NCBI RefSeq assembly: GCF_036588685.1 | Contig: NC_086382.1 | Span: 50,143,235-50,197,377, forward strand | Direction: 5' to 3' | Source of the DNA: Mytilus trossulus | Lineage: Eukaryota | Length of the DNA stretch: 54,143 bases | Shown: positions 26,381 through 52,074 of the stretch, in pieces | How the letters are laid out: the number at the start of each line of letters is the position of its first letter | Numbering within the stretch: the first letter of the stretch is position 1 | The notes under the pieces: model-generated | Seen by the model: the letters and a program-made list of their open reading frames with translations, nothing else | Database searches by the model: none | What the model was told of the DNA's origin: nothing | Made by a program: the position numbers and the translations under genes

Positions 26381-27221
26381 TGGTGTCTAATTTTTGATAC
26401 CTTTGAAGCATGACATTTATTACCTGCTGCCATCCCCACCTCAAAGACCAACACACCCTCCCTTGACACCTCCACTATTCCTTACTTATTTAGTCCTTGC
26501 TATGCTCTATCAGAAAATATAAACAAACCTTTCGTATGATCCAACATCTTTTTAAACCTTTTCACATACTCTTATTTTTTTCAATTAAAATAACATGATG
26601 TGGTATGATTGGCAATGAGTTTAATATCCTTTTCCGATAAATCCAATGACCAATTAAGTGAGGTGGATTTAAGAAGGCCTGTTGACCATTGCTTGACCTT
26701 TAACAATTATTATCCTCCTGTGTCCATCCAAAACCAGGATACTTTTATGAGGCTATTTATTTGGTATCTCTATCATGAATCTATTATAATTAGTGTTTAT
26801 AATTTTAGTCATGCTCTATTTTTCAGATAAAAAGATGTCAATATTTAGTGATTGTCAGATAGTCCTGGACTTGACTACCAGTGTCAACTTTAAGAAAAAG
26901 ACAGAAATCAGGAAAATTATCACTAATAATGGAGGAGTTATATCCTATATTGTCACTAAAAAGGTAAACATCATAGAGCCTGCCATTTTACAAATTCCAG
27001 TTTTTAGAATTTTATAATATAACAAGGTGTGGTGGATTATTGCCAATGAGACAACTGAAATTCAACAAAGGTCAAAACTTCAATAATCAAGATTTTAAAA
27101 AGCAATTTTATCATTTAACAATTGTTCTTGCAAAGTTCCGGACAGTTGAATTTAAGTGTTACCAAGAGAATTGAAAAGGAAGTTTAATATGACAAACCAT
27201 ACTACTTATATAGTAACCATT

Positions 27222-27940
27222 TTTCGTAAATCCTAGTAATCTTTTACAAAAATCTTCTCCTCTGAAACTAGGTTGCCAAATTTAACCAAACTTGGCCACA
27301 ATCATCATTGGGGTATCTTGTTTAAAATTTGTGTCCGGTGACTTGATCAACTATTCAAGATGGCCGCCATGGCTAAAAATAGAACATAGGGGTAAAATGC
27401 AGTTTTTGGCTTATAACTGAAAAACCAAAACATCAAGAGCAAATCTGAAATGGGTAAAAAAAATTATCAGGTCAAGATCTATCTGCCCTGAAAATTTCAG
27501 ATGAATCGAAACAAACCGTTGTTGGGTTGCTGCCCCTGAATTGGTAATTTTAAAGAAATTTTGCTGTTTTTGGTTATTATCTTGAATAAAATTATAGATA
27601 GAGATAAACAGTAAACAGCACTTAAGATTTACAAATAAGTCAACATGACCGATATGGTCAGTTGACCCCTTTAGAGTTACTGCCCTTTAAAGTCAATTTT
27701 CAACATTTTTCATAAATTTTTGTAGATTTTTCGAAAATATTTTCCACTGTAATTACTGGGCCAAGTTCATTATATATAGAGCTAATTGTAGCAACAAGAA
27801 TTTTCAGTAAAGTAAGATCTACAAACACATCACCATCATCAAAACACAATTTTGTTATGAATTTATCTGTGTCCATTGTTTAATATGCACATAGACCAAA
27901 GTGAGTGACACAGGCTCTTGAGAGCCTCTAGTTTTAAGGT
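27222..27940 (+). mobile_element. Truncated single-unit copy of the composite element seen at 40430-43460: one 480-bp satellite unit plus tail, lacking the terminal repeats
   Basis: Collinear with 42060-43300: taatcttttacaaaaatcttctcctctgaaact...ccaagatggccgcc..ggctaaaaatagaacataggggtaaaatgcagtttttggcttataac...cacaggctcttgagagcctctagtttt. Confidence 0.7.
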
Positions 27941-29039
27941 CTTATAGCCACTTTAACAAGTTAAATTTGATTGTTTTATTATTTGTTTTAAATGACCTAC
28001 AATATGACAGCAGAGGAAATAACTCTTGCTAAGGTTGGTGCATCTGATGACCATTGATTCAATTAAAAATATCTGTTGCAAACAGGTGATTTTACTTCTT
28101 TAAAATAAGTGCTTAGTGGGTAATATAAATGAAAAATGAGCCTTACTTCAGATGACTGGATTTTCAAGGTTCAAAGAGCATTTTTATTTATTTCTCAAAT
28201 TTCATAGCTTTGATTAAGAACAGTAAATTCAGAAATGATTGCATTCAATATATAATGTATTATTGCAATATTTTAAGAATGGACAAAAATACTAGTTTAG
28301 TTATTGTTGTGATTCCAGGAAAATATTCGGTTCATTCTGGCTATTCCTACATTTTGAATTTTATAGGTAAAATAGTAAAATTTTATGTAGGAGTCCCCAG
28401 AATTTTTGTGTAAACAATGGGATTATGTAGGATTATCTTGTAACAACACTAAACTAATGATATTTTATGAATCAAGGTAAATGCAGGTTATTCTTGTAGA
28501 AAATAAAGAAAAAGAATAATTTATATCAAAATTCAGTGGTTGTCGTTTGTTTATGTATAAAATACTTGTTTTTCGTTCATTTTTTTTTCTATATATAAGG
28601 CCGTTAGTTTTCTTGTTTGAATTGTTTTTCATTGTCATATCGGGTCCCTTTTATAGCTAACTATGCGGTATGGGCTGTGCTCATTGTTGAACGCCATACG
28701 GTGACCTATAGTTGTTAATGTCTGTGTCATTTTGGTCACTTGTGGACAGTTTTCTCATTGGCAATCATACCACATCTCCTTTTTTTTTTTTATATATATT
28801 TGAGGCTGAAGTTGAAAGTGTGGGTAGCTATTAATTTTCTTTTTAAATACGTTTTTTTCCAGACTTTCCAGACTTTCCAGACTAAATTAAATTAATAAAT
28901 AAATATTTTATTGCTTTTACTACTTTTTCTTTCATTTCATTTTTATTTTTCCAATGCTTTTACTCCCTTTTCTTTCAATTAAATATATTTTATTTTAGAA
29001 ATTCCATGGTATTAAAATACTTAAAAATATTACTTTATG

Positions 29040-29850
29040 CATGTTTTCAAACAAAAAAGTCGCATTTTTTGGGCGTATGACATTTGCGCCGATTTTGAAA
29101 ATTTTCATTCTTTCATTTGCGCCGATTTCATTTTTTCATTTGCGCCGATTTTATATTTTTTCCTAATTGGATTTACAGGTAAGTTACAGGTAAGTTCATA
29201 CTTTAACATTGGCCGAGCACAGAGTATAAAGACAAATCAAGTGACATTGCAATTGGTAAATGGCTATCCCAATGTTTCGGGTTACCATTCCGTTGGCTTT
29301 CCCTAAATGAAATCGATGACTGCTTCACGTTTGACATTGTCTGACGCTCCGCTCCTTCTGATGGCAAATTTTATACATTCGTAGACAACGTACAAGTACA
29401 CATTCCATAACGGTCAACCAATTCGTGATGGTGTCCATAAAATTAACGGAGGAATGATTTCAACTTCACCATGTGGAACTCTTGGTTTAATAGTTCCCTT
29501 GTGAGAAAATGCGAACTCTAGAAATACCCCACCAGTACAGTACGTATGCCAGACAAAGAAAAGATGACCTTCTTTATCGACAATTACGCCAAATATAGAA
29601 GAGACGAAATCATAAGAAAGGAATATATGTGTTGCCTACTATACATACTCGGCAAAAACCGAGATTTATGATTTGAATGTATTCCGTTTTTATGGATTTG
29701 AATGCTGTACATATATTTTTTAATTCGTCATTTTAGTATAAACAAAGTGCTTTTATCTCAGGTTTTTATTTCTTGATTTAAAAGACAAAATTGGCGCAAA
29801 TGAAATGCAGATCGGCGCAAATGCAAAATGCCGCATTTTTTACATATAAA
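29040..29850. mobile_element. Candidate TIR element of about 0.8 kb with subterminal repeats: catttgcgccgatt x3 at the left end and aatcggcgcaaatg / ggcgcaaatg in inverted orientation at the right end
   Basis: Left end: aaaaaagtcgcattttttgggcgtatgacatttgcgccgattttg..catttgcgccgatttc..catttgcgccgatttt. Right end: ttggcgcaaatgaaatgcagatcggcgcaaatgcaaaatgccgcatttttt. The two ends are reverse complements. Confidence 0.45.
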
Positions 29851-30651
29851 TAATGATTTTTATCTAATTTCCGCAGGTAAATGTGCCTTTGACCAAATTA
29901 GACACTAACGACTAAAACAACATATTTTGCAATAAAAACATGTATTGTTCTTCCACTAATCCCCCATGTAGGAATAGCCAGAATAGTAAAATACAAAATG
30001 TAGGAATAGCCAAATATTCATACTGAGGAATGTATCTGATATTAGAATGCAAGTTCTAATTATTTTGATACTACCCCAGTTATTATTCCCATTAATAAAA
30101 AACTAACAAGAATTTTTGAATTCACTGTAAATATGACTATTTATATCTAATTCTTCCTCAATTTATCCCTTTCTGCACCCATTGTATAAAAAAATTTAAT
30201 CAGCATGTGGTTTGTTTGATCTAAGTACTTCATTGGTTAAAATCCGATTATGACGTCGAATTTTCTTGCTTTCCTCTAAAATTCCTATTTTGACGGCATG
30301 AAAAAAGGCGACCATGCCTCAGGCGGCCATCATCATGACGTCACATAGAAAGAACACTTTATTTTGCAGATCATTCGAAAAGAAGGAATAAGTGTGCCCG
30401 CATATAATGTTAGAAAATCATTAGAGAAACAGATTCCACCACCAAATCTCGTGTAATACAATATTTATCCACTCATGACAGTTAAATTTAAAATATTTAA
30501 AACACTCTGGCAAGCCTCACGTTTTAAATTTGAAAATTTAACTTTCTCTAGTTGATTAATATTATATTACACTCGATGCAGCGGTAGAATCTATATGTTT
30601 TCCCAAATCCAACTAATAATTTCACTTGACTATTTACAAATTTATTTACAG

Positions 30652-31169
30652 AGTACACATGTTGTTTGTAATGACCCAGAAAAGGGAGATATCAGTAACA
30701 AATGTAAAATGGCCACAAAGTATGGATTACCAGTAGTGTCACTTGATTATATCCATGATTGTGTAGACCAGGGGAGACTACTCAGTTGTCTAGTTTATTA
30801 TATGTTTCTGGTTTATTTTCAGAGTACACATGTTGTATGTAATGATCCAGAAAAAGCAGATATCAGTTCAAATGTAAAATGGCCACAAAGTATGGAATAC
30901 CAGTAGTGCCGCTTGATTATATCCATGATTGTGTAGACCAGGGGAGATTACTCTGTTGTCTAGTTTGTTATATGTTTCTGGTTTATTTACAGTGTACACA
31001 TGTTGTTTGTAATGATCCAGAAAAGGCAGATATCAGTTACATGTACAAATGTAAAATGGCCACAAAGTATGGATTACCAGTAGTGTCACTTGATTATATC
31101 CATGATTGTGTAGACCAGGGGAGATTACTCTGTTGTCTAGTTTGTTATATGTTTCTTGTTTATTTACAG
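30652..31169 (+). repeat. Three extra tandem copies (units of about 171, 170 and 177 bp) of the 3-prime end of an intron plus the 5-prime 130 nt of the PARP4 BRCT exon. Each copy carries an acceptor but no donor.
   Basis: The units begin at 30652, 30823 and 30993. Each starts with ..tttatttacAG (a/t)GTACACATGTTGT.TGTAATGA.CCAGAAAAGG.AGATATCAG...ATGGCCACAAAGTATGGA.TACCAGT.GTG.CACTTGATTATATCCATGA.TGTGTAGACCAGGGGAGA.TACTC and then switches back to pyrimidine-rich intron-like sequence. Confidence 0.85.
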
Positions 31170-31368
31170 AGTACACATGTTGTATGTAATGACCCAGAAA
31201 AGGCTGATATCAGTTACAAATGTAAAATGGCCACAAAGTATGGATTACCAGTGGTGTCACTTGATTATATCCATGACTGTGTAGACCAGGGGAGATTACT
31301 CAATACAGATAATTACATCCTGGTTGGAAAAACAAAGTCACAAGAATTCAGCTCAGGAAAGATAACAG
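31170..31368 (+). CDS. PARP4: PARP4-like exon: BRCT domain C-terminal half (fourth and only complete copy). Ends phase 1 at donor ACAG|GTAAAAG.
   Basis: Translation is STHVVCNDPEKADISYKCKMATKYGLPVVSLDYIHDCVDQGRLLNTDNYILVGKTKSQEFSSGKIT. I aligned this to my recollection of human PARP4 as ..THIILDNADVLSQYQLNSIQKNHVHIANPDFIWKSIREKRLLDVKNYDP, which is not a database check. Acceptor AG at 31168-31169, donor GT at 31369-31370. Confidence 0.65.
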
Positions 31369-32478: not shown

Positions 32479-32621
32479 CCTCGAAATATCAGAGCAAAGA
32501 ACCCAAGAAGAAGAAATTTAAAATTGACCCTAAGAATGTTAAAGTTTGGAAGACAGAAGATAAAAATGCCCCAGAGTACAATGAAAAAGACTATGAAGTG
32601 GCCAAGTATGCCATATTTCAG
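32479..32621 (+). CDS. PARP4: PARP4-like exon, phase 1 in to phase 0 out. The donor is the non-canonical CAG|GCAAGG (GC-AG class).
   Basis: G(31368)+CC gives Ala. The translation ASKYQSKEPKKKKFKIDPKNVKVWKTEDKNAPEYNEKDYEVAKYAIFQ continues the frame exactly. KDYEVAKY matches the PARP4 motif I recall as DFEVAKY. Acceptor tttatttgcAG at 32477-32478. Confidence 0.55.
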
Positions 32622-37900: not shown

Positions 37901-38988
37901 AGTAAAAGTAGGCGAGACACTGGTTCCGCGGAACCCTTACAAATTTTTTTCATGCATTTTTCATTAAAGAAATTTCAAATTTAAAGCTTTGTCAGCATTT
38001 TGAAAAAATAATGTGAAAATTTGGTATTGTTTATATCTGTATATGATATTTTTTTAACAACATAATTATCTAAAGAAAGTTTAAACCACAAAAAGAGGAA
38101 TACATGCTCAATTTTTTTTTAATTAAATTTGAGATTCTTAACCTTGACATGTTGAAAAATTCAATAAATGGTCAACTAATGAATTACGAAATCTAGATTA
38201 TAGCTTGATAAATTATATGAAAACACCTTTAGAGTTGTTTGTTATACTCTAAAGACTGCTAAAAAATCTAGAATCAATACATTCTGATGAATAGAAGCGG
38301 TAAAGTTATAATTTTGTATCAATTTTTATTGACATTTCTGCCTTTTTTGCAAGTTATCTCCCTTTTCAATGCAAATTTCCATAGGAAAATTTAAATGGTG
38401 ATTTTTTTAGTCTTCCTCAAGTTAGATTTTATGGGACTTTTTTCTGTGTATATTTGGGGTTTTAATGCTTAAGATTAAAACTTAAAAATCTTCTGTTGCA
38501 ATTACTTTCAGGTTAGGGTCAAATTTATACTAGATTGATTGCTAATGACATTGAAGTTAACAACTATAGCCTATAGGTCACTGTTAAGGTTTTCTTGAAT
38601 GAGCAAAACCCATACTGTATAGTCAAGGCCTTGAAATTACCATTGTAAAGCAATTGTAACAAGAAACCTATGGCCTGATTTATGTACAAAACAATGCACA
38701 AAAAACTGATATGCAGCAGTAAACAACAACCACTGATTACTTGGGACCAGCACTTACAGAATGTGGTGGGGTTAAACTATAGTTTGCTGGTGTCAATACA
38801 AATTTATATAATCATTAGAAGTTACAACCTATGCTTAAACTTAATTGATTTAGCATGTCAATTACCCCTGCTACTATGAGCCTGAATATTGAGAACCAGA
38901 CTAAATATTTTCTGCAATTGGGTGAATTTATTGCTTAGTTTGCCTATTCTTAAAAGCAAATTTAAGTGAGGTAAAAAATGTTTTTCAG

Positions 38989-39126
38989 ATGGTAGAAATT
39001 TATGGTATGGACAGTCGTCCCTTGTCACCATCAACTGTAGAGTTAATTGAACATATTTGGAAAGAGGCTACAGGTGAAATAGAACAGGTGATAAGTGTAC
39101 CATTACAGAGCATCAAGTTAGAACAG
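38989..39126 (+). CDS. PARP4: PARP4-like exon: PARP regulatory/helical domain part, phase 0
   Basis: Acceptor tgtttttcAG at 38987-38988. Translation MVEIYGMDSRPLSPSTVELIEHIWKEATGEIEQVISVPLQSIKLEQ aligns to my recollected human ..LSQEVSDLVEMIWAEALGHLEHMLLKPVNRISLNDV. Donor CAG|GTATGC at 39127. Confidence 0.65.
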
Positions 39127-39843
39127 GTATGCACACTTTTTTTTTATTAAAAAAATATAATTAGAATACAAACTGGAATAATTTACATAACTTTTACCTT
39201 TGAAAACCAATTATATACAATGTTATACAATAAGTATTTGTCACCAACGATCTTTACAATCTTTACTAAATATTTCTAACAATAACAAACAGTATTTTGA
39301 ACAACACAGCTATTTTATATTTTATAATTATATTTGTTTATATCTATTTATGAATTGTTATCAGTTGTCTTTGTTTTTTTCCTGAAGTGAACATTTAGTT
39401 TGGTTGAAATTAATGGCAACGTTCCAGACAAAAATGAAATGAGAAAGCATCATAATAAAATTATAACCAAAGTTGTTAGTTCAAACCCTGCTTGTCAATA
39501 CTGTAAATTCAGAAATTATTGTGTGCATTTATTATTGCAATTTGGTCACTTTAGACTTCCATGCGATTTTAATCTTTATGATTTTGGGAAAAAATCCTGT
39601 TTAATTCATATAAAATATTTTTAAAATGTGAGTTTAAATTATTGCGGTTACAACAATTAAATAAGCATTTTTCTCAACATTAAAAACCTCGAAATAGTTT
39701 CTGAATGTACTGTAGTTAAGGGTCTTTAAGTGGCATTTATCACAAGCATACCAGAAAATGAGTTGTACAGTATTTGAATGTAATGCAAATGTTGATCTGA
39801 TAAAAATATGTAATACAATATTTTCTTTTGACATATATTATAG

Positions 39844-40011
39844 ATAGAGAAAGCAGAAGCTATTCTGTTGATGATAAAGGATTGTAAGGATGACTCAAGA
39901 GTAGTAAAATTGTTTGAAGAATTTTATGAAGCATTACCACACAAAAACAAAAATCAACCTGTCAGTTCACAGAGGAGATCATGGCTATCAAAGAAACAAG
40001 ATATATGTCAG
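39844..40011 (+). CDS. PARP4: PARP4-like exon: helical domain, phase 0
   Basis: Acceptor tatattatAG at 39842-39843. Translation IEKAEAILLMIKDCKDDSRVVKLFEEFYEALPHKNKNQPVSSQRRSWLSKKQDICQ aligns to my recollected human SKAEGILLLVKAALKNGETAEQLQKMMTEFYRLIPHKG...LLAKKADLCQ. Donor CAG|GTAATA at 40012. Confidence 0.7.
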
Positions 40012-40429
40012 GTAATATGCTTGATCCATTTCAATTACCAGAAATACTCTTTTAACTGACTTCTGACTTCTGACTTCTGATGCAACTTTTAATGGGTAAA
40101 GTGCATCCCTGAATATTTGAACAGATGAAGTAATTGTGATTGCTTGACATTTTTTCAAACACCGGTCTTTATTTTCATGAACATAATCAAAACCTGCCTA
40201 TAGAAATATATTAAATTTTATCATTTAAAAACAGTTATCAAAGCAGTCACATATAATTTATCACCATTAGAATATTCATCCCTTAGCTCAACGCACTGAC
40301 ATAAACTTTATGTCAAGCAAACCTATTATTGACTTCAAATTATGTCACATAAAACCAAACACTTCCACAGAAAAGAGTCTTGTAAGTTAATATTCATACC
40401 AAAAATCTTTCTTCACTCATTTTCCATTA

Positions 40430-43400
40430 CAATTAGTGACCTTCATTATACCCCACACAACGGGTTGCGGAGGATATAATGTTTTTGACCCGTCCATCCT
40501 GAAGTCCGTCTGTCAGTCCGTCAGTCAGTCCTGTTTCTTGTCATCGCAATTCCTCTCAAACCACACAACAGAATTTCACGAAACCTTTTCAGATCATAAG
40601 GACATACTATGTAGTTGTGCATATCAACCGAAAATTGCGATTCAATTTTTTTTCTAGGAGTTACACTCTTTTGAACTTATTTACTTTAATGTACTGCTGC
40701 AACAGTTTGTCATCGCAACTCCTCTCAAACCACACAACAGAATTTCACGAAACCTTTTCAGATCATAAGGACATACTATGTAGTTGTGCATATGGACGGG
40801 AAATTGCGATTTAATTTTTTCTAGGAGTTATGCCCCTTTGAACTTATTTACTTTAATGTACTACTGCAACAGTTTGTCATCACAACTCCTCTCAAACCAC
40901 ACAACAGAATTTCACGAAACCTTTTCAGATAATAAGGACATACTATGCAGTTGTGCATATCAACGGGAAATTGCGATTCAATTTTTAGCTCACTTGGCCC
41001 TTCGTTCGGGCCAAGTGAGCTTTTCCCATCACTTTGCGTCTGGCGTCCGTCGTCGTCCGTCGTCTGTCGTCCGTCGTCTGTCGTCCGTCGTCGTTGTTAA
41101 CTTTTACAAAAATCTTCTACTCTGAAACTACTGGGCCAAATCAAACCAAACTTGGCCACAATCATCATTGGGGTATCTAGTTTAAAAAATGTGTGGCGTG
41201 ACCCGGTCAACCAACCAAGATGGCCGCCACGGCTAAAAATAGAACATAGGGGTAAAATGCAGTTTTTGGCTTATAACTCAAAAACCAAAGCATTTAGAGC
41301 AAATCTGACATGGGGTAAAAATGTTTATCAGGTCAAGATCTATCTGCCCTGGAATTTTCAGATCAATCGGCCAATCGGTTGTTGGGTTGCTGCCCCTGAA
41401 TTGGTAATTTTGAAGAAATTTTGCTGTTTTTGGTTATTATCTTGAATATGATTATAGTTAGAGATAAACTGTAAACAGCAATAATGTTCAGCAAAGTAAG
41501 ATCTACAAATAAGTCAACATGGCCAAAATGGTCAGTTGACCCGTTTAGGAGTTATTGCCCTTTATAGTCAATTTTTAACCATTTTTAGTTAATTAAAGTA
41601 ATCTTTTACAAAAATCTTCTCCTCTGAAACTGCTTGGCCAAATTAATCCAAACTTGGCCACAATCATCTTTGGGGTATCTAGTTTAAAAATGTGTGGCGT
41701 GACCTGGTCAACCAACCAAGATGGCCGCCACGGCTAAAAATAGAACAAAGGGGTAAAATGCAGTTTTTGGCTTATAACTCAAAAACCAAAGCATTTTGAG
41801 GAAATCTGACATGAGATAAAAATGTTTATCAGGTCAAGATCTATCTGCCTGAAAATTTTCAGATGAATCGGTCAATCGGTTGTTGGGTTGCTGCCCCTGA
41901 ATTGGTAATTTTGAGGAAATTTTGCTGTTTTTGGTTATTATCTTGAATATTATTATAGATAGAGATAAACTGTAAACAGCAATAATGTTCAGCAAAGTAA
42001 GATCTACAAATAAGTCAACATGACCAAAATGGTCAGTTGACCCGTTTAGGAGTTATTGCCCTTTATAGTCAATTTTTAACCATTTTTCGTAAATTAAAGT
42101 AATCTTTTACAAAAATCTTCTCCTCTGAAACTACTTGGCCAAATTAATCCAAACTTGGCCACAATCATCTTTGGGGTATCTAGTTTAAAAAATGTGTGGC
42201 GTGACCTGGTCAACCAACCAAGATGGCCGCCACCGCTAAAAATAGAACATAGGGGTAAAATGCAGTTTTTGGCTTATAACTCAAAAACCAAAGCATTTTG
42301 AGGAAATCTGACATGGGATAAAAATGTTTATCAGGTCAAGAACTATCTGCCCTGAAATTTTCAGATGAATCGGTCAATCGGTCAATCGGTTGTTGCCCCT
42401 GAATTGGTAATTTTGAGGAAATTTTGCTGTTTTTGGTTATTATCTTGAATATTATTATAGATAGAGATAAATTGTAAACAGCAATAATGTTCAGCAAAGT
42501 AAGATCTACAAATAAGTCAACATGATCAAAATGGTCAGTTGACCCCTTTAGGAGTTATTGCCCTTTATAGTCAATCTTTAACCATTTTTCATAAATCTAA
42601 GTAATCTTTTACAAAATCTCCACTGAAACTACTAGGCCACAATCATCTTTGGGGTATCTAGTTTGAAAAATGTGTCCGATGACCTGGCCATTCAACCAAG
42701 ATGGCCGCCACGGCTAAAAATAGAACATAGGGGTAAAATGCAGTTTTTTGCTTATAACTATGAAACCAAAGCATCTAGAGCAAATCTGACAAGAAGTTAA
42801 ATTGTTAATCAAGTCAATATCTATCTGCCCTGAATTTTTCAGATGAATTGGACAACTGGTTGTTGGGTTGCTGCCCTCCAATTGATAATTTTTAAAGAAA
42901 TTTTGCCGTTTTTGGTTATCTTGAATACTATTATAGATAGCGATAAACTGTAAACAGCAATAATGTTCAGCAAAGTAAGATCTACAAATAAGTCAACATG
43001 ACCTAAATGGTCAATTGACCCCTTAAGGAGTTATTGCCCTTTATAGTCAATTTTTAACAATTTTCATTAATTTGGTAAATTTATGTAAATTTTTACCAAA
43101 TATAGTTCTCTGTTACTAATGGGCAAAGTTCATGATAGATATAATTGTAAGAAGCAAAATCGTTCAGTAAAGTAAGAACTTCAAACACATCACCATCACC
43201 AAAATACAATTTTTTCATGAATCCATTTGTGTCCTTTGTTTAATATGCACATAGACCAAGGTGAGCGACACAGGCTCTTTAGAGCCTCTAGTTTTTCTAG
43301 GAGTTACGCCCCTTTGAACTTATTTACTTTAATGTACTACTGCAACATTTTGTCATCTTAACTCCTCTCAAACCACACAACAGAATTTCACGAATCCTTT

Positions 43401-43460
43401 TCAGATAATAAGGACATACTATGCAGATGTGCATATTGACAGGAAATTATGATGCAATTT
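40430..43460 (+). mobile_element. Composite non-autonomous element of about 3 kb in a PARP4 intron. It comprises terminal direct repeats of about 170 bp (3 copies at 40540-41000, 1 copy at 43300-43460), a 14-bp-stem hairpin (40987-41021), a (TCCGTCG)n GC-rich tract (41035-41095), an internal 4 x 480 bp satellite (41100-43060) and a 240-bp tail.
   Basis: Terminal unit: ..tcctctcaaaccacacaacagaatttcacgaaaccttttcagatcataaggacatactatgtagttgtgcatat.aacgggaaattgcgattcaattttt. Hairpin: agctcacttggccc ttcgttc gggccaagtgagct. 480-bp unit: taatcttttacaaaaatcttctcctctgaaactacttggccaaat...ccaagatggccgccacggctaaaaatagaac...ccctttatagtcaatttttaacc. The ORF-track proteins in this interval (40436.., 40617.., 40784.., 41152..) are repeat artefacts. 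Confidence 0.7.
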
Positions 43461-43718
43461 TTTTTTCTTACACATATTTTATTTCTCCAATGACAATGTG
43501 GGGACGTGGTGTATGTGAGTGTGCTCACTAAGGTTCTATAACTGTTCATGTATATAGTGATGACAGGACAAAATTAGATCGTAACACATTTTTAAGTCTA
43601 AAAGTAAGGAAGTGCTCTATTTCAAAATTAGAGTGTTTCTTTCTTATCATTTCCCTGACTTAAAATATTTGTGTATGTTTTTGACATGATGTATGTATTT
43701 TAATATTATGTATTTCAG

Positions 43719-43870
43719 ATGATTAAAGATATGGTGGCTGTGAGTGAGTCTACAAACTGGTCGACTAGAAGTAGTACAGAGGCCAAGTATAAAGCATTAC
43801 GATGTAGACTGGATGGTTTAGAGATTACAGATACAGAATATAAACAGATCAAGGAGCACATTATACAGTC
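43719..43870 (+). CDS. PARP4: PARP4-like exon: helical domain end, phase 0 in to phase 2 out, with the weak donor ACA|GTTTGT
   Basis: Acceptor tgtatttcAG at 43717-43718. Translation MIKDMVAVSESTNWSTRSSTEAKYKALRCRLDGLEITDTEYKQIKEHIIQSLK aligns to my recollected human IRDMVNVCETNLSKPNPPSLAKYRALRCKIEHVEQNTEEFLRVRKEVLQ. Only this donor position gives an open frame into the next exon. Confidence 0.55.
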
Positions 43871-44489
43871 TCTAAAACAGTTTGTATTTTCAATACAATA
43901 CATATACATTATTTTGTTGTTGTTGATGATTCATTAACATTTAATGTATTTGTATATATCAATGGTAAACCATGAAATTTGGGTGCAACAAATACTTAGT
44001 TTTGACATTGTCATATTTATAATTAAGAACATATCTAGAATCAAGAATCTTATTAATTAGGTCTTACTGAAATCATCATGATTGGGTCAAAACAATTCAA
44101 TTTTTCCAAGGTTGTTTATAATTTTAGATAACAGCTGATTACAGGAGATTAATAGGTAATAACAGATAAGATAAATGTTTATACCAATGTCTGGATTGTC
44201 ACACTGAAAAGGATTCAATGTCACCTATAGATTCTTGGGTTATTGTGTTTTTGGATGCTGATATTTAATCCAAATCTTAAAAAGATAACATATTGAAATC
44301 ATTGGATTTAATACTTGTAGTATAAACAAATTTTCTGCTTCCAGTAAATTCTCAATGGATTGTTTTTTGTTTTCTTATTTTTTAGGCGGTAGTATATAGC
44401 TATTAAGTTTATTGCTGGTGAATTCAGGATTTACAACCGTAAGTAAAATATGATGAAGATTTTGATTTCCTTCCCCTTTTTTATTTCAG

Positions 44490-44630
44490 AGGAAGCCCTG
44501 AGATCAACATTAGTAATGTTTTCTGTGTTCATCGACAAGTAGAAGAAGACAATTTTAGGAAAGACTTGAGACCTCAGAAATTGTTGTTTCATGCATCAAA
44601 AGTACAGAACTTTGTAGGAATATTATCAAG
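44490..44630 (+). CDS. PARP4: PARP4-like exon: start of PARP catalytic domain containing the His of the H-Y-E triad, phase 2 in and out
   Basis: CA+A gives Gln. Translation GSPEINISNVFCVHRQVEEDNFRKDLRPQKLLFHASKVQNFVGILS aligns to my recollected human ..SKSPVDVLQIFRVGRVNETTEFLSKLGNVRPLLHGSPVQNIVGILC. Acceptor ttttatttcAG at 44488-44489, donor AAG|GTAAAAAG at 44631. Confidence 0.7.
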
Positions 44631-45221
44631 GTAAAAAGTTTTAATTTAATTAGAAATGGCCAAACAAATAGGACCATAGTAGAATCTGAATGTATTGTTG
44701 AAGAGTTCGTGTCTTTCATTATCTGAATATTATAATTCATTAGTTTCTAGGTGATTTTTATGAACCATATCACCAAATCTTTGGAAAACTTTTACACAAT
44801 ATGATGGATGACTAAATATAAACCAGGTTCATTTGCAGATTTATCCATTCAAGGGTTATACTTTGTTTCCTATGAATCTTTACAACTTCAGTTGTAGACA
44901 TCCTGTTTCAGGGCCAAAATTCTTTAGAAAATATAACAGAGAATTGAAAGGCAATGTTTTAAAGATCAACCACACAGAATATTTTGGGAGAAAAAAATGC
45001 AACTGTATAACTATTGTGAAAACTGATTTGAACCCCATCTCTGTGTTATTATATGCAGTGCCTTTCAACAACCAATCTTTTTTTTCGGATATAGCCAATC
45101 CTCTTTTTTTTTTTAATGGATAAATAAAATTAAATCAGAAATAATATTTGTAGATTATACATATATGAAAAAAAAACCATGATATGACAAAATGGACGTA
45201 AGTGCTTACCACAATTGGACG

Positions 45222-45392
45222 TTTCAGAATCTAAAGCATCATGGGTAATTTCATTGTGCGTACCCCAAAAGGAAAATAAGTTCATTTCATTGGTTGAATT
45301 TCCATTGTTTATGACATTTTCAACCAATCAGAACGTTTTGGTGTACACTTTTGAAAATATTACCCAGGATGCATTAGATTCTGAAACAGCAA
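45222..45392. mobile_element. MITE of about 170 bp with 16-bp TIRs GTTTCAGAATCTAAAG / CATTAGATTCTGAAAC. A second copy at 49788-49962 directly abuts the donor of the VIT exon.
   Basis: Copy 1: gtttcagaatctaaagcatcatgggtaatttcattgtgcgtacccc...tacccaggatgcattagattctgaaac. Copy 2: ctgtttcagaatctaaaggactatgggtaactcaattgtttgtaccc...tacccagaatgcattagattcttaaacag. Confidence 0.7.
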
Positions 45393-45426
45393 ATATCTTT
45401 CAATAAGTATAAATCTTTCTTTTTAG

Positions 45427-45525
45427 GGGTTTACTTTTGCCTAAAATAATTGTTGATGATTTTGGCGGAACAAGAACAGATGCAGGAATGCTGGGAAATG
45501 GTGTCTACTTTGCCAGCTCTGCGAG
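45427..45525 (+). CDS. PARP4: PARP4-like exon: catalytic domain containing the Tyr of the triad, phase 2 in and out
   Basis: AG+G gives Arg. Translation RGLLLPKIIVDDFGGTRTDAGMLGNGVYFASSA aligns to my recollected human RGLLLPKVVEDRGVQRTDVGNLGSGIYFSDSLS. Acceptor ctttttAG at 45425-45426, donor GAG|GTATGT at 45526. Confidence 0.75.
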
Positions 45526-45933
45526 GTATGTAGAGGTCGCAAGAACTCAAATAAAATTCTGCAAAACAGAATGGACTTTCTTTACAAGAATTTGATCTTT
45601 GTCATATAGTGTTGACTTCAGTGGTCAAGTTTTTTTTTAATGTAAGATATTTGCATGACAATGTGATTTTATTTTAATTTCAATTATTTAAATGAGTATA
45701 ACGTGTAACTGAAAAATTTTCATTTATCTTGGGATAAGATTCAAGGTTATATGAAGTGCCATACCTGTCAACCTCTGAAAATGAAAAGTCAGGTCATGAC
45801 CTGCATTGAGAAAAAAAATCTCAGGTCATAACGCGTACGACATTTTGCGGGCTCAATTGAAGAACAAAAATATGTTTACATATAATTTATATAGTCAATA
45901 TGTATATAAAACAGTTAGAACATGTATACAAGT

Positions 45934-46437
45934 TTATTTCAGACTATTGTTATATTCCATAGTAGCAGACTTGGCATTCTTTAAAAGAACTGCACTTGGT
46001 TTCAGTTCATAGCAATGCAAATGTGTATTCATTTTACAAGAAAGAAGAGCACACAGTGTATCCTTATTAAGATCAGCCCTAAACTCTGTAGCTATTTTCT
46101 TTACTAAAGAAAATGCCCTCTCACTGTCTGCATTGCTGTTTGGCAAAACCAGTAATGTTTTAGCAAGTTTTGACAAAACAAAAAATCTTGGCTTGTTAAG
46201 AAAAATGTCATGCAACTTGGACATTTCTCCCCAAAATGTACCAATGTCAGTTTCAGGGGAAGTGCAAAGTGGAAGTTCATCTAATGGGGTCAACTGATAG
46301 TCACTGAACTCATCTTGTAGCTTGTTGAAAATATCGTTACGTAGCTCAGGTAAACAAGTCCTACATTTTGACTTTTGATTACATTGAAAAAGACCGATAA
46401 AACCGAAGGTCGTATTACTTCTAAATACCGGAAACAA
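45934..46437 (-). mobile_element. hAT-superfamily transposase remnant (C-terminal hATC dimerisation region), internally deleted. The adjacent subterminal ACGGGTG repeats at 46440-46560 are discussed under findings.
   Basis: The 167-aa ORF ..LPELRNDIFNKLQDEFSDYQL..FWGEMSK..LAKTLLVLPNSNADSERAFSLVKKIATEFRADLNKDTLCALLSCKMN carries the diagnostic hATC signature (..NADSERAFS..R..L....L..LL). The N-terminal DDE part is absent. Confidence 0.65.
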
Positions 46438-46724
46438 TTCCGGTCAGAAATCCGGGTGAAACGGGTAATGTTAGAAATTCCCGGGACCCGCCGGGTTAAG
46501 AAAAACTCCCGGGTGAGAGGTGAAAATAACGGGTGTCACCCGCAAAAAACGGGTGATTTGACAGGTATGAAGTGCTGGTAATTCAAATTTGCATAATTCC
46601 GGACATTTTAGTACGTCAGCTCTTTATATTTTGTGTACTAAAATGTTAACAAGATATACAATTGAAAAAAGTACTAAAACAATGTAAGATTCAAAACATA
46701 ATATGATTTATTTTTATCTGACAG

Positions 46725-46908
46725 TACTAGTATACAATACTCAGACCAAAGTAAATGTAAGGGAACCAGAATGATGCTAGTCAGTAATGTTGCCCTTGGC
46801 AACTGTAAAGATTTCACTGAATACCACAAAGATCTACAGGGGCCTCCAGAGGGGTATGAAAGCTGTCATGGTGTAGCGTCATCAGAAGATCAACCTTCAG
46901 AATTCAAG
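46725..46908 (+). CDS. PARP4: PARP4-like exon: catalytic domain, phase 2 in to phase 0 out
   Basis: AG+T gives Ser. Translation STSIQYSDQSKCKGTRMMLVSNVALGNCKDFTEYHKDLQGPPEGYESCHGVASSEDQPSEFK aligns to my recollected human STSIKYSHPGETDGTRLLLICDVALGKCMDLHEKDFSLTEAPPGYDSVHGVSQTASVTTDFE. Acceptor tctgacAG at 46723-46724, donor AAG|GTACAC at 46909. Confidence 0.75.
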
Positions 46909-47871
46909 GTACACAGATAAATAATAGAGGCCTCCAAATGGTTTTAATATAACCAGTACATTCTTTTTTTCACTAAGAAATAAAATAATGCAGAATATTC
47001 TTGATATATGGGGTCCACCTTGTAATACTTTTACCAGATAAGCAAGTTATCAATATGTATTAGTTTTTTATGTATTTTGAATGGTATAACAGAATAATTA
47101 GGGGTAATACTTGTGACATGAGCTCACTGTGGTAGGTCAGAGTACACAGTTATTTAGTTGTGCATTTCTTTTAGACAATAAATGGAAATAAAAAAATCCC
47201 ACCTGCGCTTTCTCAATAAAATTTTACAGTGTGTTGTACTACTTTTAAGACAAATTCTATCAAAATTATAGAAACTTCATCAGCTCTAACTCAAACTATG
47301 GACAATTTCATGTATAGGGGGTCTTGAAATCTTTTGACTGCTTCGGAAATGCTAAATTTTGACCTTTTTCAACTGGAGCAAATCACTACTTTACATTATA
47401 ATTCATGAATCAAATTTTTTTACAGTGTAATTCTGTCCCCGTTCTTGCTACTTGAGGCATAAAACATAAAGAAATAAATTGGAAAGGGGGATAAAAAAAA
47501 TTGACAAGTAACACACTGTCCACACTAAGGACTATATTTGTGGACAACGAAAATCAAGGGAGGATAACTGTGTACTCGGACCAGTACATAGATTGACAAT
47601 TCTTAATAGACAAAACAAAGGATATGGGGTATCCATCCATGACACAAAATCAGTAAATGCACAGCAAAAAATAAAAAGGCAAACAGTCCATTTATTGTTG
47701 TTTTTTCTTCTCAAATTCACAGTTAGGCCTTCAACATGGAGCAAAGAAACTCCCTTCCTAATGCAAGTCCAAGACAACCCCCAGCACTGGTCATAGTTAA
47801 GTATTGTTTACATACCACAATATAATGTACGATTTAATGATATTTTACGTTTTTTATTTTAATTTCTACAG

Positions 47872-48019
47872 GATGATGAATATGTAATTTACAATACAAA
47901 CCAGCAAATCGTAGAGTACTTAGTGGAGTTTTCTATGGAAGGGGATATCAAACAATCGTTTAACATAGAATCAATGTCCACCATGGAAGAAGATGTAGAT
48001 TTAGATGTTAACCAGCAAA
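47872..48019 (+). CDS. PARP4: PARP4-like exon: end of catalytic domain containing the catalytic Glu (DDEYVIY), phase 0 in to phase 1 out
   Basis: Translation DDEYVIYNTNQQIVEYLVEFSMEGDIKQSFNIESMSTMEEDVDLDVNQQ aligns to my recollected human DDEFVVYKTNQVKMKYIIKFSMPGDQIK. Acceptor ttctacAG at 47870-47871, donor AAA|GTAAAAT at 48020. Confidence 0.7.
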
Positions 48020-48487
48020 GTAAAATTATTATTTAATATCCCTTTTGCAGTAAGCACTAAACATCTTAAAGGAAAAGGAAAATATTTAATTAGTGTGAAT
48101 TTCATAATTAAGTGCTTATATACCTCTAAATTTAAATATAATATTTAAAAAAAAAAAATTGACAGAATAAAATATTCACTGAATAGACTAAAACTGATGG
48201 CCGTATTAATTATAGTCATTTCCATCCCATTACTTACTTACTCTTATGGCAATTGTGACTTTAAAATTTTTTCTAAAGATTAAACATAATTGATTTACTT
48301 TAGAAAATCATTTCAGCCTCAAGTAGAAAATATCAGAAAGATTTTAACTTAACTGTTGACAAAATAATTTTGCAACTGGACATGTAGCAAACAACAATCA
48401 AACTAATTTAGGAAAGTTTTAAACTTAATTGTATATTTCTTTAGTGCAGATTGCAATAACTGTTTTAAATATCCTTTTATATTTCAG

Positions 48488-48621
48488 TTGACTTAAAAGA
48501 TGTTTCTGGAATAAAGAATCCGATGGACAAAGTAGAACCAGGATTGGTATCTACCTCAGGAGAATCATGTGTTTTGAAATCAGTCCATATCAGAGCTCAG
48601 CTAATGGACTTGGCCTCAAAG
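48488..48621 (+). CDS. PARP4: PARP4-like exon: linker and start of VIT domain, phase 1 in to phase 0 out
   Basis: A+TT gives Ile. Translation IDLKDVSGIKNPMDKVEPGLVSTSGESCVLKSVHIRAQLMDLASK aligns to my recollected human ..LVPLEDVHIKGRIIDTVAQ. Acceptor tatttcAG at 48486-48487, donor AAG|GTATGA at 48622. Confidence 0.65.
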
Positions 48622-49546
48622 GTATGATTAACATGTAAATAAGCTTAAGTCCATATCAGAGCTCAGCTTATGGAATTGGCCTCAAAGGTATTAATTATAC
48701 CATAAGCACCTTACTTAGAAAAATATTTGAAATCTATTCACATTGCTGGACATAATAAACTACAGTATGCTGTTTGACAATTTTCTTGAAGGAATGACCT
48801 TTATTCTGGCTTCAAAAGTTTATAAGAGTTGGACCCCTTTAATAATGTATTCTGATTGTTCTCTTCCCTGTGAATGCCTATTTCCTTATTTTACTGTGAC
48901 ATATCAATAACTGTTTCAATTTTAAGAGTCCAGTAGACAAAATCAATAATTTGTAGTAAAATCTGAATAAGTTTAACTTTTATGAAATGGACAGGACTTT
49001 AGTAGCAGAAATTTTATTTCAATTTATCAAACAAAATACAAATGGAATGATATCACAGAAGGGTATTTGTATAATGGTAAATAAAAAAAAATAAAATAAG
49101 TAGATATAGGGAGATGTGGTATGAGTTCCAATAAGTCAACTCTCCATCCAAGTCACAATTTACAAAAACAAACCATTATAGGTCAAGGTACGGTCTTCAA
49201 CATGGAGCCTTGAACAATGAGTCCACTGAAAACAGCAAGCTATAAAGGGCCAAAACAATTACTTTATCACACAATCAACCATTAATTTTCCAAATTTCAA
49301 TGCTTGCAAAAACTGATTGAAGGAAACTTATGCCATTGTGAAATAAAGAAAAGACAGGTTAAGAAATTGAATTGGAACAATGTTGTTGGGTTTTTTTGTA
49401 GTTTAGAAAATTTTCAAGAACAGTTTGGTTTTACACAGTCATCCTCCCAACACAAGGTTCTGTTCAGACCAGTTTTGTTGTAATTATACTTTGAAAGCCA
49501 ATTATGTCTTGGAAAGATCTTTCTCTAATGGTACTTTATATTTTAG

Positions 49547-49771
49547 GTTGTAGTGCTACAAGAGTACCACAACACTAGTACCTCTACTCTCGAAGCTAAG
49601 TATGTGTTCCCATTAGATGATATGGCTGCTGTTTGTGGATTTGAAGCTTTTATTAACGGTAAACATATCGTGGGAGAAGTAAAGGAGAAGGAGACCGCTC
49701 ACAAGGAATACAAGAAGGCAATAAGTGAAGGACATGGAGCCTATCTCATGGATCAGGATGAAGAAACTCCG
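49547..49771 (+). CDS. PARP4: PARP4-like exon: VIT domain core, phase 0
   Basis: Translation VVVLQEYHNTSTSTLEAKYVFPLDDMAAVCGFEAFINGKHIVGEVKEKETAHKEYKKAISEGHGAYLMDQDEETP, versus my recollected human ..EAKYIFPLDDKAAVCGFEAFINGKHIVGEIKEKEEAQQEYLEAVTQGHGAYLMSQDAP. Acceptor tattttAG at 49545-49546, donor CCG|GTACAT at 49772. Confidence 0.85.
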
Positions 49772-50370
49772 GTACATTTTATAATCGGCTGTTTCAGAAT
49801 CTAAAGGACTATGGGTAACTCAATTGTTTGTACCCAAAATCGAAAATAACACCATGTCATTGGTCTAATTCCTATTGTTTCGAACAGTTTATAACAATCA
49901 TGACACTTTGGTGTACACTTATGAAAATATTACCCAGAATGCATTAGATTCTTAAACAGCCAATTATATACTTGATGTTTTAGTTTTATTCTACTCATTA
50001 TTTTGTTGTTGTCTTGTTTCTATTTTCCCACATCTCCTGTTAGTAATACTTCAGGAATAATGTTTTAACAGTATATATTTGTACCTTTTTAATGTGTATG
50101 GTTAAATTAATGAGTCAACTGTGAGTTAAATTATTATATAAAACATTCGGTGTCATCAAATTCAAATATATTAAAGGATCTTTTTGAACACACAGGTCAT
50201 GTAAACATTTACAACACAGTGCACAGATCAATTTGTTAGCCAACTTTACATATATAAATTGACATCAAATTTCTAAATATAGTGAAGATTTATAAGATGC
50301 CGTTATAATTTGTATGCTATGTGTCTTTTATGAAGAAAATTTACTTATAAATCTTTCTTGTTTCTGGCAG

Positions 50371-50526
50371 GATGTATTTACTGTCAGTGTCGGTAATTTG
50401 CCACCAGGGTGTGTGGCCCTTATCAAGATAACTTATGTATCAGAATTACAAGTAGAAGGAGAATTGATTAACTTCACAATTCCTGGATCTGTGGCTCCTT
50501 GGAAACAGGAAGCCAGTAATACTGAG
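50371..50526 (+). CDS. PARP4: PARP4-like exon: VIT domain continuation, phase 0
   Basis: Translation DVFTVSVGNLPPGCVALIKITYVSELQVEGELINFTIPGSVAPWKQEASNTE, versus my recollected human DVFTVSVGNLPPKAKVLIKITYITELSILG..ATVAPWQQDKALNE. Acceptor tttctggcAG at 50369-50370, donor GAG|GTAAGG at 50527. Confidence 0.85.
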
Positions 50527-50801
50527 GTAAGGGAGATAACAAGAGCAGAGGGTGAAATAATAAATACTTTCATATTCCTATTGAATCAGGAAGATAGAAA
50601 TATTTTTATTGGGATATCTTTTCGGAAGATGATGATATTAAATACAAACATTTATAAAAAAAATGAAATATAAGTTTGTCATAGAAGAAAAGTTCATTTG
50701 AATCTACAGATTTCATTTTAGAATTAGAATTTTATATTGGACAGAGAGCTGAGTTATAGTTTTATTGAAACACGTATGTTGTCATTGTACATGTATTACA
50801 G

Positions 50802-50891
50802 GGTGATGACAGCTGTACCATCAAAGTGTCAATACAGATGCCATTTGATATCAGAACAGTAACATGTCCAACTCATAAAATTATGAAAAAG
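50802..50891 (+). CDS. PARP4: PARP4-like exon, phase 0
   Basis: Acceptor gtattacAG at 50800-50801. Translation GDDSCTIKVSIQMPFDIRTVTCPTHKIMKK, versus my recollected human SFSLTMSIEMPYVIEFIFSDTHELKQK. Donor AAG|GTAAGT at 50892. Confidence 0.7.
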
Positions 50892-51017
50892 GTAAGTAAC
50901 TCTCTTTATGTTGCTTGAGGAATTTTTCTGTGCATGGTTTTATTTTTCAGCTATGAAAATCTTTCAAATTTTGACAAATTGAGTGTTTTGAAATGTCTGA
51001 TATTTTCAAGCTCCTTT

Positions 51018-51300
51018 TTATGCCCCACCTACGATAGTAGAGGGGCATTATGTTTTCTGGTCTGTGCCTCCGTTCATCTGTCTGTGTGTCCGTTCGTCCA
51101 TGCGTCCGTTCGCTTCAGGTTAAAGTTTTTGGTCAAGGTAGTTTTTGATGAAGTTAAAGTTACATCAACTTGAAACTTAGTACACATGTTCCCTATGATA
51201 TGATTTTTCTAGTTTTAATTCCAAATTAAAGTTTTGACCCCAATTTTCACGGTCCACTGAACATAGAAAATGATAGTGCAAGTGGGGCATCCATGTACTA
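51018..51300. mobile_element. MITE of about 280 bp with termini TATGCCCCAC / GTGGGGCATC and a TCCGTTCG-rich tract, related to the repeat families at 36150-37900 and 41035-41095
   Basis: ttatgccccacctacgatagtagaggggcatta...gtgcctccgttcatctgtctgtgtgtccgttcgtccatgcgtccgttcgcttcaggttaaagttttt...gtgcaagtggggcatcc. It lies in a PARP4 intron. The ORF-track protein 50934..51173 is an artefact of this element. Confidence 0.5.
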
Positions 51301-51654
51301 TGGACACATTCTTGTTAGCTTGATGGATTAGAAAACCATAAGTATCATAAGACTTACATATAGCATTCTTCAAATGTTATATAGACCTTATCTTTTTTTA
51401 TCAGCAGATTTGCTTTTTTTATTGTGTTTTTGTTAACTTCATCATTTTTAATACATATTTGAAGACTGCCAAATTTGACTCGTTTGATATTCAAAAGAAT
51501 ATTAAGATAATAGCAACAGCAGTTCAAAGATCAGTTCTATTTTGAAAAAATACAAAATATGAATTGAATGGAATAACAAGATAGCTTTATATTGATTAAT
51601 TTTCTGTAAGTATATATAGAAATGAAGTAAAGTTTGTGGGTATTTTTGTTTCAG

Positions 51655-51792
51655 AGTACAGCTACAAGATGTACAGTTTCAATGACAGAAGGACAGACTA
51701 TTTCCGATGGATTTCAATTGCTGATAGGACTGGCTGAGATACATGTACCAAGGATGTGGGTCGAGGTAGATAATGAAGGCAAACAAACTGAG
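51655..51792 (+). CDS. PARP4: PARP4-like exon, phase 0
   Basis: Acceptor tttgtttcAG at 51653-51654. Translation STATRCTVSMTEGQTISDGFQLLIGLAEIHVPRMWVEVDNEGKQTE, versus my recollected human TDCKAVISTMEGSSLDSSGFSLHIGLSAAYLPRMWVEKHPEKESE. Donor GAG|GTACAT at 51793. Confidence 0.8.
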
Positions 51793-52074
51793 GTACATTA
51801 TCAAAAGATGGGGAAATAGCTAGTTAAGTATGTGCAAAACAATTTCTTCATTTTTCAAAGTCAATTCATGGCCAAATATTAATTATAAATTATATTATCC
51901 ATATAAAAAGGTTCGAATATGTAATCCAAAAAGTATGACCTTTTTAACTTCTTATGTGAACTCTCAGAACTAAATTTTGTAACCTTTCAACACTTACATA
52001 GGGGGTAAAAAAAGGAACCATGAAAGTTATGAACTCTTGGTGGTAAAAAAATTCCATCTTTTACATATTTTTAG

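Follow-up and report, generated by a model that had tools for sequence, protein, structure and literature searches.

A fourfold tandem duplication of a splice acceptor and the 5′ part of a BRCT exon in a PARP4 orthologue of Mytilus trossulus

Results

The array lies between BRCT-coding exons of a PARP4 orthologue

The window, by which we mean the whole 54,143-nt stretch of Mytilus trossulus DNA under study (contig NC_086382.1), carries on its plus strand a multi-exon gene with BRCT, PARP, VIT and vWA domains, whose predicted products identify it as an orthologue of PARP4, the vault PARP (Table 1). Pfam searches on the exons returned, in genomic order, BRCT (3.5e-13), PARP (8.5e-29), VIT (5.7e-38) and VWA_3 (6e-10), and since BRCT-PARP-VIT-vWA is the architecture of PARP4, we named the gene accordingly. 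In protein searches with the concatenated exons, the best named homologues were PARP4 proteins from a coral and from vertebrates, while PARP1-3-like WGR proteins scored far lower; the top matches, with E-values down to 3.7e-141, also include mollusc proteins that are unnamed or otherwise named (Candidula, Solemya, and a Mytilus 'PARP2_3_4'). Residues 1-92 are matched by two structures of the human PARP4 BRCT domain, 9dfo and 9dev.

The BRCT domain is encoded by two exons. Exon 2 alone gives a weak BRCT match, and the Pfam E-value quoted above is obtained when it is joined with exon 1, which we located via the ORFs of related contigs and tblastn. The exon joins were modelled on the Solemya velum PARP4 protein (P0089), in which SYIVTKK/CTHVV...GKVV/ASKYQ corresponds to exon 1, a single exon 2 and exon 3 (slashes mark exon boundaries here and below), and on a related contig, L003, where exons 1 and 2 are contiguous. 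Joined in this way, exon 1, the last unit of the array described below and exon 3 form an open frame. At least 14 later PARP4 exons are open and conserved, and the gene accordingly appears intact; in the PARP exons the catalytic H, Y and E motifs can be read (LLFHAS, GVYFA, DEYVIY), and the gene continues past the end of the window.

Table 1. Positions of the array, its units and the PARP4 exons in the window (position 1 is the first letter of the window).
Feature	Position	Strand	Remarks
Coding exon 1, BRCT N-terminal half, MSIFSDCQIVLDLTTSVNFKKKTEIRKIITNNGGVISYIVTKK	26835..26963	+	donor AAG/GTAAAC at 26964, phase 0, 6.8 bits; tblastn
Intron 1, predicted assuming the last acceptor	26964..31169	+	4.2 kb; final 529 nt are the three decoy units
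Tandem array, whole	30641..31301	+	TRF; repeat search; MAFFT; blastn
Unit 1, exon-like part	30652..30783	+	acceptor AG 30650-30651; A12G and Y16N
Junction 1-2	30784..30822	+	filler 30784-30811, then 11-nt intron-derived TTTATTTTCAG 30812-30822; acceptor AG 30821-30822
Unit 2, exon-like part	30823..30953	+	1-bp deletion between 30868 and 30869; TAG 30904-30906; L26I, S30P
Junction 2-3	30954..30992	+	filler and TTTATTTACAG; acceptor AG 30991-30992
Unit 3, exon-like part	30993..31130	+	S1C; 6-bp in-frame insertion (YM, within 31038-31046); open, in frame with unit 4
Junction 3-4, acceptor context of the real exon	31131..31169	+	filler and TTTATTTACAG; acceptor AG 31168-31169
Unit 4, complete second coding exon, BRCT C-terminal half, STHVVCNDPEKADISYKCKMATKYGLPVVSLDYIHDCVDQGRLLNTDNYILVGKTKSQEFSSGKIT	31170..31368	+	199 nt; donor CAG/GTAAAA at 31369, phase 1
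Coding exon 3, ASKYQSKEPKKKKFKIDPKNVKVWKTEDKNAPEYNEKDYEVAKYAIFQ	32479..32621	+	tblastn with P0089; keeps the frame open after exon 2
Later PARP4 exons: regulatory helical region, PARP catalytic, VIT, start of vWA	38986..53804	+	tblastn with PARP4 proteins; Pfam; HSP boundaries approximate, without splice-site refinement
PARP4 HSPs 1-5	38986-39129, 39844-40017, 43716-43871, 44491-44631, 45416-45523	+	tblastn
PARP4 HSPs 6-10	46717-46908, 47866-47967, 48484-48624, 49547-49765, 50371-50535	+	tblastn
PARP4 HSPs 11-14	50817-50912, 51652-51765, 52075-52260, 53622-53804	+	tblastn

Four head-to-tail units carry the acceptor and the start of exon 2

Across the end of intron 1 and the start of exon 2, TRF reports one tandem array with a period of 177 bp, 3.8 copies, 91% matches, 2% indels and a score of 1128. 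Together with a repeat search, MAFFT and blastn, it resolves into four head-to-tail copies of a layout comprising 11 nt of the intron 3′ end, ~132 nt of the exon 5′ part and a 28-nt filler. The duplicated piece, of 170-177 bp, thus takes in the end of the intron and the first two-thirds of the PARP4 BRCT exon. Successive exon-like parts start 171, 170 and 177 bp apart and contain, for units 1 to 4, 132, 131, 138 and 132 nt of exon-derived DNA; each is preceded by ...TTTATTT(A/T)CAG, i.e. an acceptor of the TTTATTTACAG type. Their translations follow the consensus (S/C)THVVCNDPEK.DIS..KCKMATKYG.PVV.LDYIHDCVDQGRLL, and exact matches to the motif GTACACATGTTGT number four in the 54-kb window (30653, 30824, 30994 and 31171).

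When unit 4 was compared with the whole 54-kb window by blastn, its sister units were the sole good matches (92.7%, 92.9% and 95.1% identity, E 1e-62 to 1e-73); no unit copies were found beyond the array, the remaining matches all having E >= 0.4. The four-unit repeat is real and stands far above chance level. The original prediction had read here a fourfold tandem duplication of a splice acceptor with the 5′ part of the BRCT exon, of which only the last unit reaches the complete exon and its donor, and both statements hold: unit 4 alone runs on (NTDNYILVGKTKSQEFSSGKIT) through the full 199-nt exon to the donor at 31369. We rejected a minus-strand gene or a mobile element, as the minus strand has short chance ORFs only and the unit recurs nowhere else in the window.

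Reading frames and predicted products of the four acceptors

In three-frame translation, one frame covers unit 1 and extends 46 nt into unit 2; a second takes in the remainder of unit 2 and all of units 3 and 4. For any entry at unit 1 or unit 2, the 1-bp deletion in unit 2 leads to the TAG at 30904-30906. Unit 3, owing to its 6-bp YM insertion, measures 177 bp or 59 codons, and units 3 and 4 translate without interruption. We joined coding exon 1 in silico to each of the four acceptors. The acceptor of unit 1 would define an exon of 717 nt with a stop at codon 128, and that of unit 2 an exon of 546 nt with a stop at codon 71; from unit 3, the exon would be 376 nt long and the product open with 59 additional residues, and from unit 4 the 199-nt exon would give the normal product.

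These translations and joins agree with what had been claimed for the frames: a stop met from units 1 and 2, a common frame for units 3 and 4, and either a premature stop or a 59-aa in-frame insertion if a decoy (any of the three upstream units) were used. The 1-bp frameshift also exists, but it lies inside unit 2 and not, as had been thought, between units 2 and 3.

Acceptors look alike in all units, and donors do not

All four acceptors end in CAG. Between -20 and -4, pyrimidines occupy 10-13 of the 17 positions, and around -23 stands a TnAy core; unit 4 has TTAT as its core, at -23, and 13/17 pyrimidines. By these features all four look competent, so that the winning acceptor is not fixed by the sequence alone. 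Unit 1 is the only one in the ancestral intron context, which displays CTAAT at -36, TTGAC at -23 and TTTAC at -16. In units 2-4, the real exon among them, the filler forms the upstream context, and just the last 11 nt before unit 4 are ancestral intron. Since the ancestral branch-site region is 520 nt away, before decoy 1, the working acceptor would have had to acquire a new branch site. Note that under a rule of the first acceptor after the branch point, unit 1 could be preferred, harmfully. The arrangement differs from NAGNAG or other closely spaced acceptors, a reading we rejected, in that neighbouring sites are separated by 170-177 nt and none shares its pyrimidine tract or TnAy core with another.

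Downstream of the acceptors, the remaining 66 nt of the exon and the donor adjoin the last copy alone; a productive mRNA would therefore need the acceptor at 31168-31169, and we infer that this is most likely the productive one. Exon definition would lead to the same choice, the strong donor at 31369 pairing with the nearest acceptor, 199 nt away, and the exons of 376, 546 and 717 nt being disfavoured. Occasional use of unit 1 or unit 2 would then yield premature-stop transcripts, which are expected NMD targets, and use of unit 3 would yield a 59-aa insertion duplicating half of the BRCT fold.

Every GT in the units was scored with a generic 5′ splice-site matrix. The real donors reach 6.8 and 6.9 bits, and the best decoy GT (AAA/GTATGG) no more than 4.5 bits; this GT occurs in the real exon too and is out of frame in every decoy. 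The scan of all units found no donor in the upstream ones comparable to the real ones. As the decoys are without a strong in-frame donor, their use as cassette exons or in new introns is unsupported by the sequence, and the scan likewise speaks against mutually exclusive exons. Recursive splicing was rejected as well: the join to exon 1, AAG/AGTACA, restores no donor.

The possibility that the array is a source of isoforms, raised in the original prediction, has to be judged against these sites. Isoforms could arise through the unit 3 acceptor, with its 59-aa insertion, or through decoys acting as mini-exons with new introns. The unit 3 acceptor module is intact and opens into a single frame with unit 4, the Solemya orthologue tolerates the S1C change seen in unit 3, and in potato RdRp a boundary duplication did create an exon and an intron (PMC4974935). 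However, the decoys offer no donor approaching the real ones in strength, and their best GT is out of frame; the insertion would double BRCT beta3-alpha3 and add the hydrophobic translated filler CCLVCYMFLVYLQ; and units 1 and 2 are unable to contribute owing to the stop, unit 1 having in addition lost two invariant residues. Unit 3 also has T as the first exon base after its acceptor, which by the general splice-site consensus is the weaker choice. We found no positive support for this reading and regard it as unlikely. It would similarly surprise us if the array as a whole were active, with three acceptors in competition, NMD of unit 1 and unit 2 transcripts partly setting PARP4 output and unit 3 yielding an isoform with a partly duplicated BRCT.

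Relatives have a single copy of exon 2

We then compared copy numbers between relatives, a check that the original prediction had proposed. We retrieved contigs bearing an exon 2 orthologue (L001, L002 with 10 kb on either side, L003, L004, L005-7, L008, L009 and L010), and exon 2 is present once in L001, L002, L003, L005-7, L008, L009 and L010 as well as in the Solemya protein. Where both exons are present (L008, L002), the intron before exon 2 is 366-509 bp long. Every relative examined has one copy, and all are distant: 27-37 of 66 third codon positions differ, and the alignment of their flanking introns is no better than that of shuffles. In protein searches the closest match on exon 2 has 88% identity; a metagenome scan gave one relative, at 57%, and a look-up in the protein collection gave no exact match to the 167-aa read-through ORF. 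From this comparison of sequences, the single copy is the ancestral state and the array is derived, lineage-specific with respect to distant relatives. Because the relatives are distant, they show the single copy to be ancestral only, and the duplication is not datable from them.

Changes in unit 4 and in the decoys

Three changes are private to unit 4, all of them synonymous and at third positions. The decoys have five private nonsynonymous changes (Table 1) and three synonymous ones, together with the frameshifting deletion and the 6-bp insertion. A12 and Y16, both altered in unit 1, do not vary among nine orthologues; as the column of Y16N contains gaps, this change was taken from the alignment by eye, not by script. 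Unit 3 is the least damaged decoy and is still open, and its S-to-C change is also found in Solemya. The contrast between unit 4 and the decoys is not significant (one-sided Fisher p ~0.07-0.17, depending on what is counted), the numbers being small. It runs the way expected if unit 4 is under purifying selection and the decoys decay neutrally, and is suggestive only.

Constraint also bears on whether the upstream acceptors could form a regulatory decoy array, lowering PARP4 output via premature stops and NMD. Three complete 3′ splice-site modules are available, one of them in the ancestral branch-site context, and the stops of units 1 and 2 lie >50 nt upstream of the next junction. Against this, the decoys display no conservation beyond neutral expectation, the array was not found in any other species examined, and the window is full of similar, evidently neutral tandem arrays; we consider such a role quite unlikely. 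Still less probable is a crippled gene in which the upstream acceptors capture splicing and this PARP4 copy is becoming a pseudogene: unit 1 does come first in transcription and still has the branch and pyrimidine context of the ancestral intron, but all the other exons seen are open and conserved, with their catalytic motifs readable, and the private changes of unit 4 are all synonymous despite 3-7% divergence among the units. The reading that we favour is that of a last unit in productive use behind upstream copies that decay in the intron.

A shared filler points to one founding event

Any two exon-like parts are 4-9 substitutions per 132 nt apart, and there are unit-specific indels, namely the 1-bp deletion of unit 2 and the 6-bp insertion of unit 3. 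The block that is securely homologous consists of 11 nt of intron (TTTATTTACAG) and ~133 nt of exon. Between blocks stands the 28-nt junction filler, (A/T)GTTGTCTAGTTT(A/G)TTATATGTTTCT(G/T)G, whose three copies are 92-97% identical to each other and differ at 1-4 positions. No copies of the filler were found elsewhere in the window by blastn, and its resemblance to the exon continuation (in the window and in orthologues) or to the intron upstream of unit 1 was no better than that of shuffles (best p 0.035, in 1/12 comparisons).

One filler common to all three junctions argues for one founding event, followed by re-amplification and decay. At two synonymous sites 9 nt apart, the four units display all four allele combinations, a mosaic consistent with copies having exchanged or converted sequence, or with recurrent mutation. 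The original prediction had suggested replication slippage or unequal crossing-over caught in progress, or else an artefact of assembly collapse. Duplication followed by unequal crossing-over is supported by the shared filler junction and the diverged copies; that it is in progress is not, given copies 3-7% apart with indels and a single 28-nt filler in common.

An assembly artefact, in which a single exon was falsely expanded or the copy number mis-assembled, is very unlikely. Tandem repeats of ~170 bp are a classic trouble spot, yet false duplications are normally near-identical copies, often beside gaps, whereas the copies here are clearly distinguishable by substitutions, indels and filler differences, and the N count in the window is 0. 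The substitutions and indels, with no N, thus speak both against an artefact and against a very recent event; even so, the number of copies may be inexact or polymorphic.

Discussion

We think it likely that the locus records a lineage-specific tandem duplication over a 3′ splice site, in which the upstream copies are now intronic and decaying and the last acceptor is the productive one. As to the mutational mechanism, we infer that, in the founding event, exon sequence ending at about nt 133 (...GGGAGATTACTC) was linked through the 28-nt filler to the 11 nt that end the intron (TTTATTTACAG). Such a junction is consistent with non-homologous or template-switch repair with filler. The resulting 170-bp unit would then have been re-amplified to four, with unequal exchange (sister-chromatid or homologous) as the most likely route and gene conversion to some extent, and the three upstream copies would have been absorbed into the intron, with 3′ splice-site modules that look complete and no usable 5′ splice site.

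The type of event is already known, as duplication across an intron-exon boundary or as an intronic minisatellite that includes a splice site, and the array is no new kind of system. Its closest likeness is to potato RdRp (Ma, Lan & Niu, 2016; PMC4974935), a locus with two copies, in which the mRNA retains the upstream piece of exon and a new intron starts from a cryptic GTAAG donor, as RNA-seq confirmed. In both cases, the 3′ end of an intron and the 5′ part of an exon were copied in direct tandem, with the acceptor, the pyrimidine tract and a putative branch site; the copies can be told apart by substitutions, and the event is lineage-specific with respect to outgroups. Unlike potato RdRp, the present array has four copies, one of them frameshifted, its units contain 11 nt of true intron plus a 28-nt filler, and its decoys are without a usable in-frame donor.

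In the Rogers/Hellsten model, duplication of an AGGT-containing exon segment leads to intron gain (Hellsten et al, 2011; PMC3265369). The array is similar in being an intragenic segmental duplication absorbed by splicing with the coding sequence preserved; in the model, however, the segment is purely exonic and the intron brand-new, whereas here an existing intron would have been lengthened by 529 nt at its 3′ end, without the need for another one. Unannotated exon duplicates are common in introns (Ivanov & Pervouchine, 2022; PMC9013439), and tandem or mutually exclusive exons share with the array the head-to-tail exon copies with acceptors in one gene. Mutually exclusive exons are whole, have both splice sites, are equal in length and phase and can substitute for each other (PMC9013439). 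The upstream copies of the array, by contrast, end at nt 131-138 of 199, are donorless and, in unit 2, frameshifted, and cannot substitute.

Comparison may also be made with human alleles. Pathogenic duplications over a 3′ splice site are known in human genes, e.g. the 18-bp duplication at HEXB intron 13/exon 14. They share with the array the choice between an upstream and a downstream AG, the upstream one leading to an in-frame insertion, but they measure tens of bp, comprise two copies and are recent alleles, whereas the units here are of 170 bp, fourfold and diverged.

The array, very probably real, offers a clean natural case of a gene tolerating a duplicated splice acceptor. The copy joined to the rest of the exon would stay functional, and the others would decay in the intron, which grows at its 3′ end. 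The most curious feature is that the ancestral upstream context now belongs to decoy 1 and no longer to the working acceptor. With four near-identical acceptors, the locus would, once studied at the RNA level, be a small natural experiment on 3′ splice-site choice and, if the array were active, it would provide a natural dosage series of one to four 3′ splice sites in identical context. For annotation it serves as a warning, as predictors based on exon homology may mis-place the exon or report frameshifts in PARP4.

As a repeat, the array resembles a minisatellite or VNTR in its ~170-bp unit, its few copies, its 91% matches and its mosaic substitutions, and there are similar arrays in the window. 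It differs from an ordinary minisatellite in containing a functional acceptor and coding sequence, so that its copy number may affect splicing. The 54-kb window contains eight further tandem arrays, with units of 14-363 bp and several of them within introns of PARP4; the genome evidently tends towards duplications of this sort. Some 50 nt upstream of the array there is also a palindromic, MITE-like element of 160 bp.

Possible exchange between units of the BRCT-exon array

Each of the four head-to-tail units carrying the 5′ part of the second BRCT-coding exon (exon 2) of the vault PARP gene PARP4 contains two synonymous sites 9 nt apart, in codons 5 and 8 (Table), and all four possible combinations at these sites (T-C, A-T, T-T and A-C) are present across the four units. 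From the sequence, this pattern suggests that the units have undergone gene conversion or unequal exchange with one another, or that mutation was recurrent. Some 50 nt 5′ of the array sits a palindromic, MITE-like element whose 71-nt arms (73% complementary) flank a loop of 20 nt; folded as single-stranded DNA, the element reaches -25.7 kcal/mol versus -10.4 in shuffles (z -5.5). We speculate that this element possibly helped the founding duplication through fork stalling or template switching.

Many further tandem arrays occur in the window, most of them within PARP4 introns, with unit sizes of 79, 27, 131-135, 193, 167 and 76 bp in 2-12 copies. The BRCT-exon array looks like one case of a tendency to form tandem arrays across the genome.

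Features in the window, with positions and strand
Feature	Position	Strand	Remark
117-aa ORF	7243-7596	+	PAN/Apple domain match (PF00024, E 4e-6)
2404-aa ORF	11801-19015	+	Single ORF; Thr/Ser extremely abundant
Palindromic, MITE-like element	30431-30592		~50 nt upstream of array
Codon 5/codon 8 synonymous sites	30666/30675, 30837/30846, 31007/31016, 31184/31193		One pair per unit
167-aa ORF	45934-46437	-	hAT-family C-terminal dimerisation domain match (E 2.9e-9)
Further tandem arrays	48-991, 26099-26368, 34279-35131, 37129-37846, 40538-40986, 53028-53357		

Exon 2 in contigs of distant relatives

In L003, a contig of a distant relative, the two BRCT exons are contiguous (118-465), the intron between them being absent while the next intron is still present. 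Three other such contigs (L005-7) do carry this upstream intron and share 87% identity with L003 over exon 2 and the downstream intron (L005 1-950), so that L003 either lost the intron recently or is a partly spliced transcript that entered a metagenome assembly. L003 starts with a 132-nt fold-back palindrome that probably reflects an assembly artefact. In another contig, L004, the middle of exon 2 (from KYGLPVV) is fused within positions 1-105 to a segment of the upstream intron in inverted orientation; this segment aligns with the opposite strand of L005 at 408-294 (83% identity). Either the assembly is chimeric here, or the relative from which L004 derives carries a real local inversion.

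PARP4 exon boundaries and neighboring features

The third PARP4 coding exon apparently ends at ...ATATTTCAG/GCAAGG (32619-32627), and its donor thus appears to be GC, not GT, as judged from the alignment of the annotated Solemya velum PARP4 protein and the acceptor of the next exon at about 33670. Directly before the start codon at 26835 lies an acceptor-like sequence, ...ctctatttttcag/ATAAAAAG (26820-26834), and an untranslated exon probably lies upstream of the first coding exon.

Upstream of PARP4, the 2404-aa ORF looks like a mucin-like giant exon: within it, a 363-bp (121-aa) unit is repeated in tandem 11.3 times (13778-17851), and the region of this ORF has a GC content of 40% with a strongly negative GC skew. 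A Pfam search with its first 400 aa gave no match. The same gene, of a secreted mucin-like type, may include the ORF with the PAN/Apple match as an exon. The 167-aa ORF, located in a PARP4 intron between catalytic-domain exons, is, judging from its hAT match, a transposase remnant.
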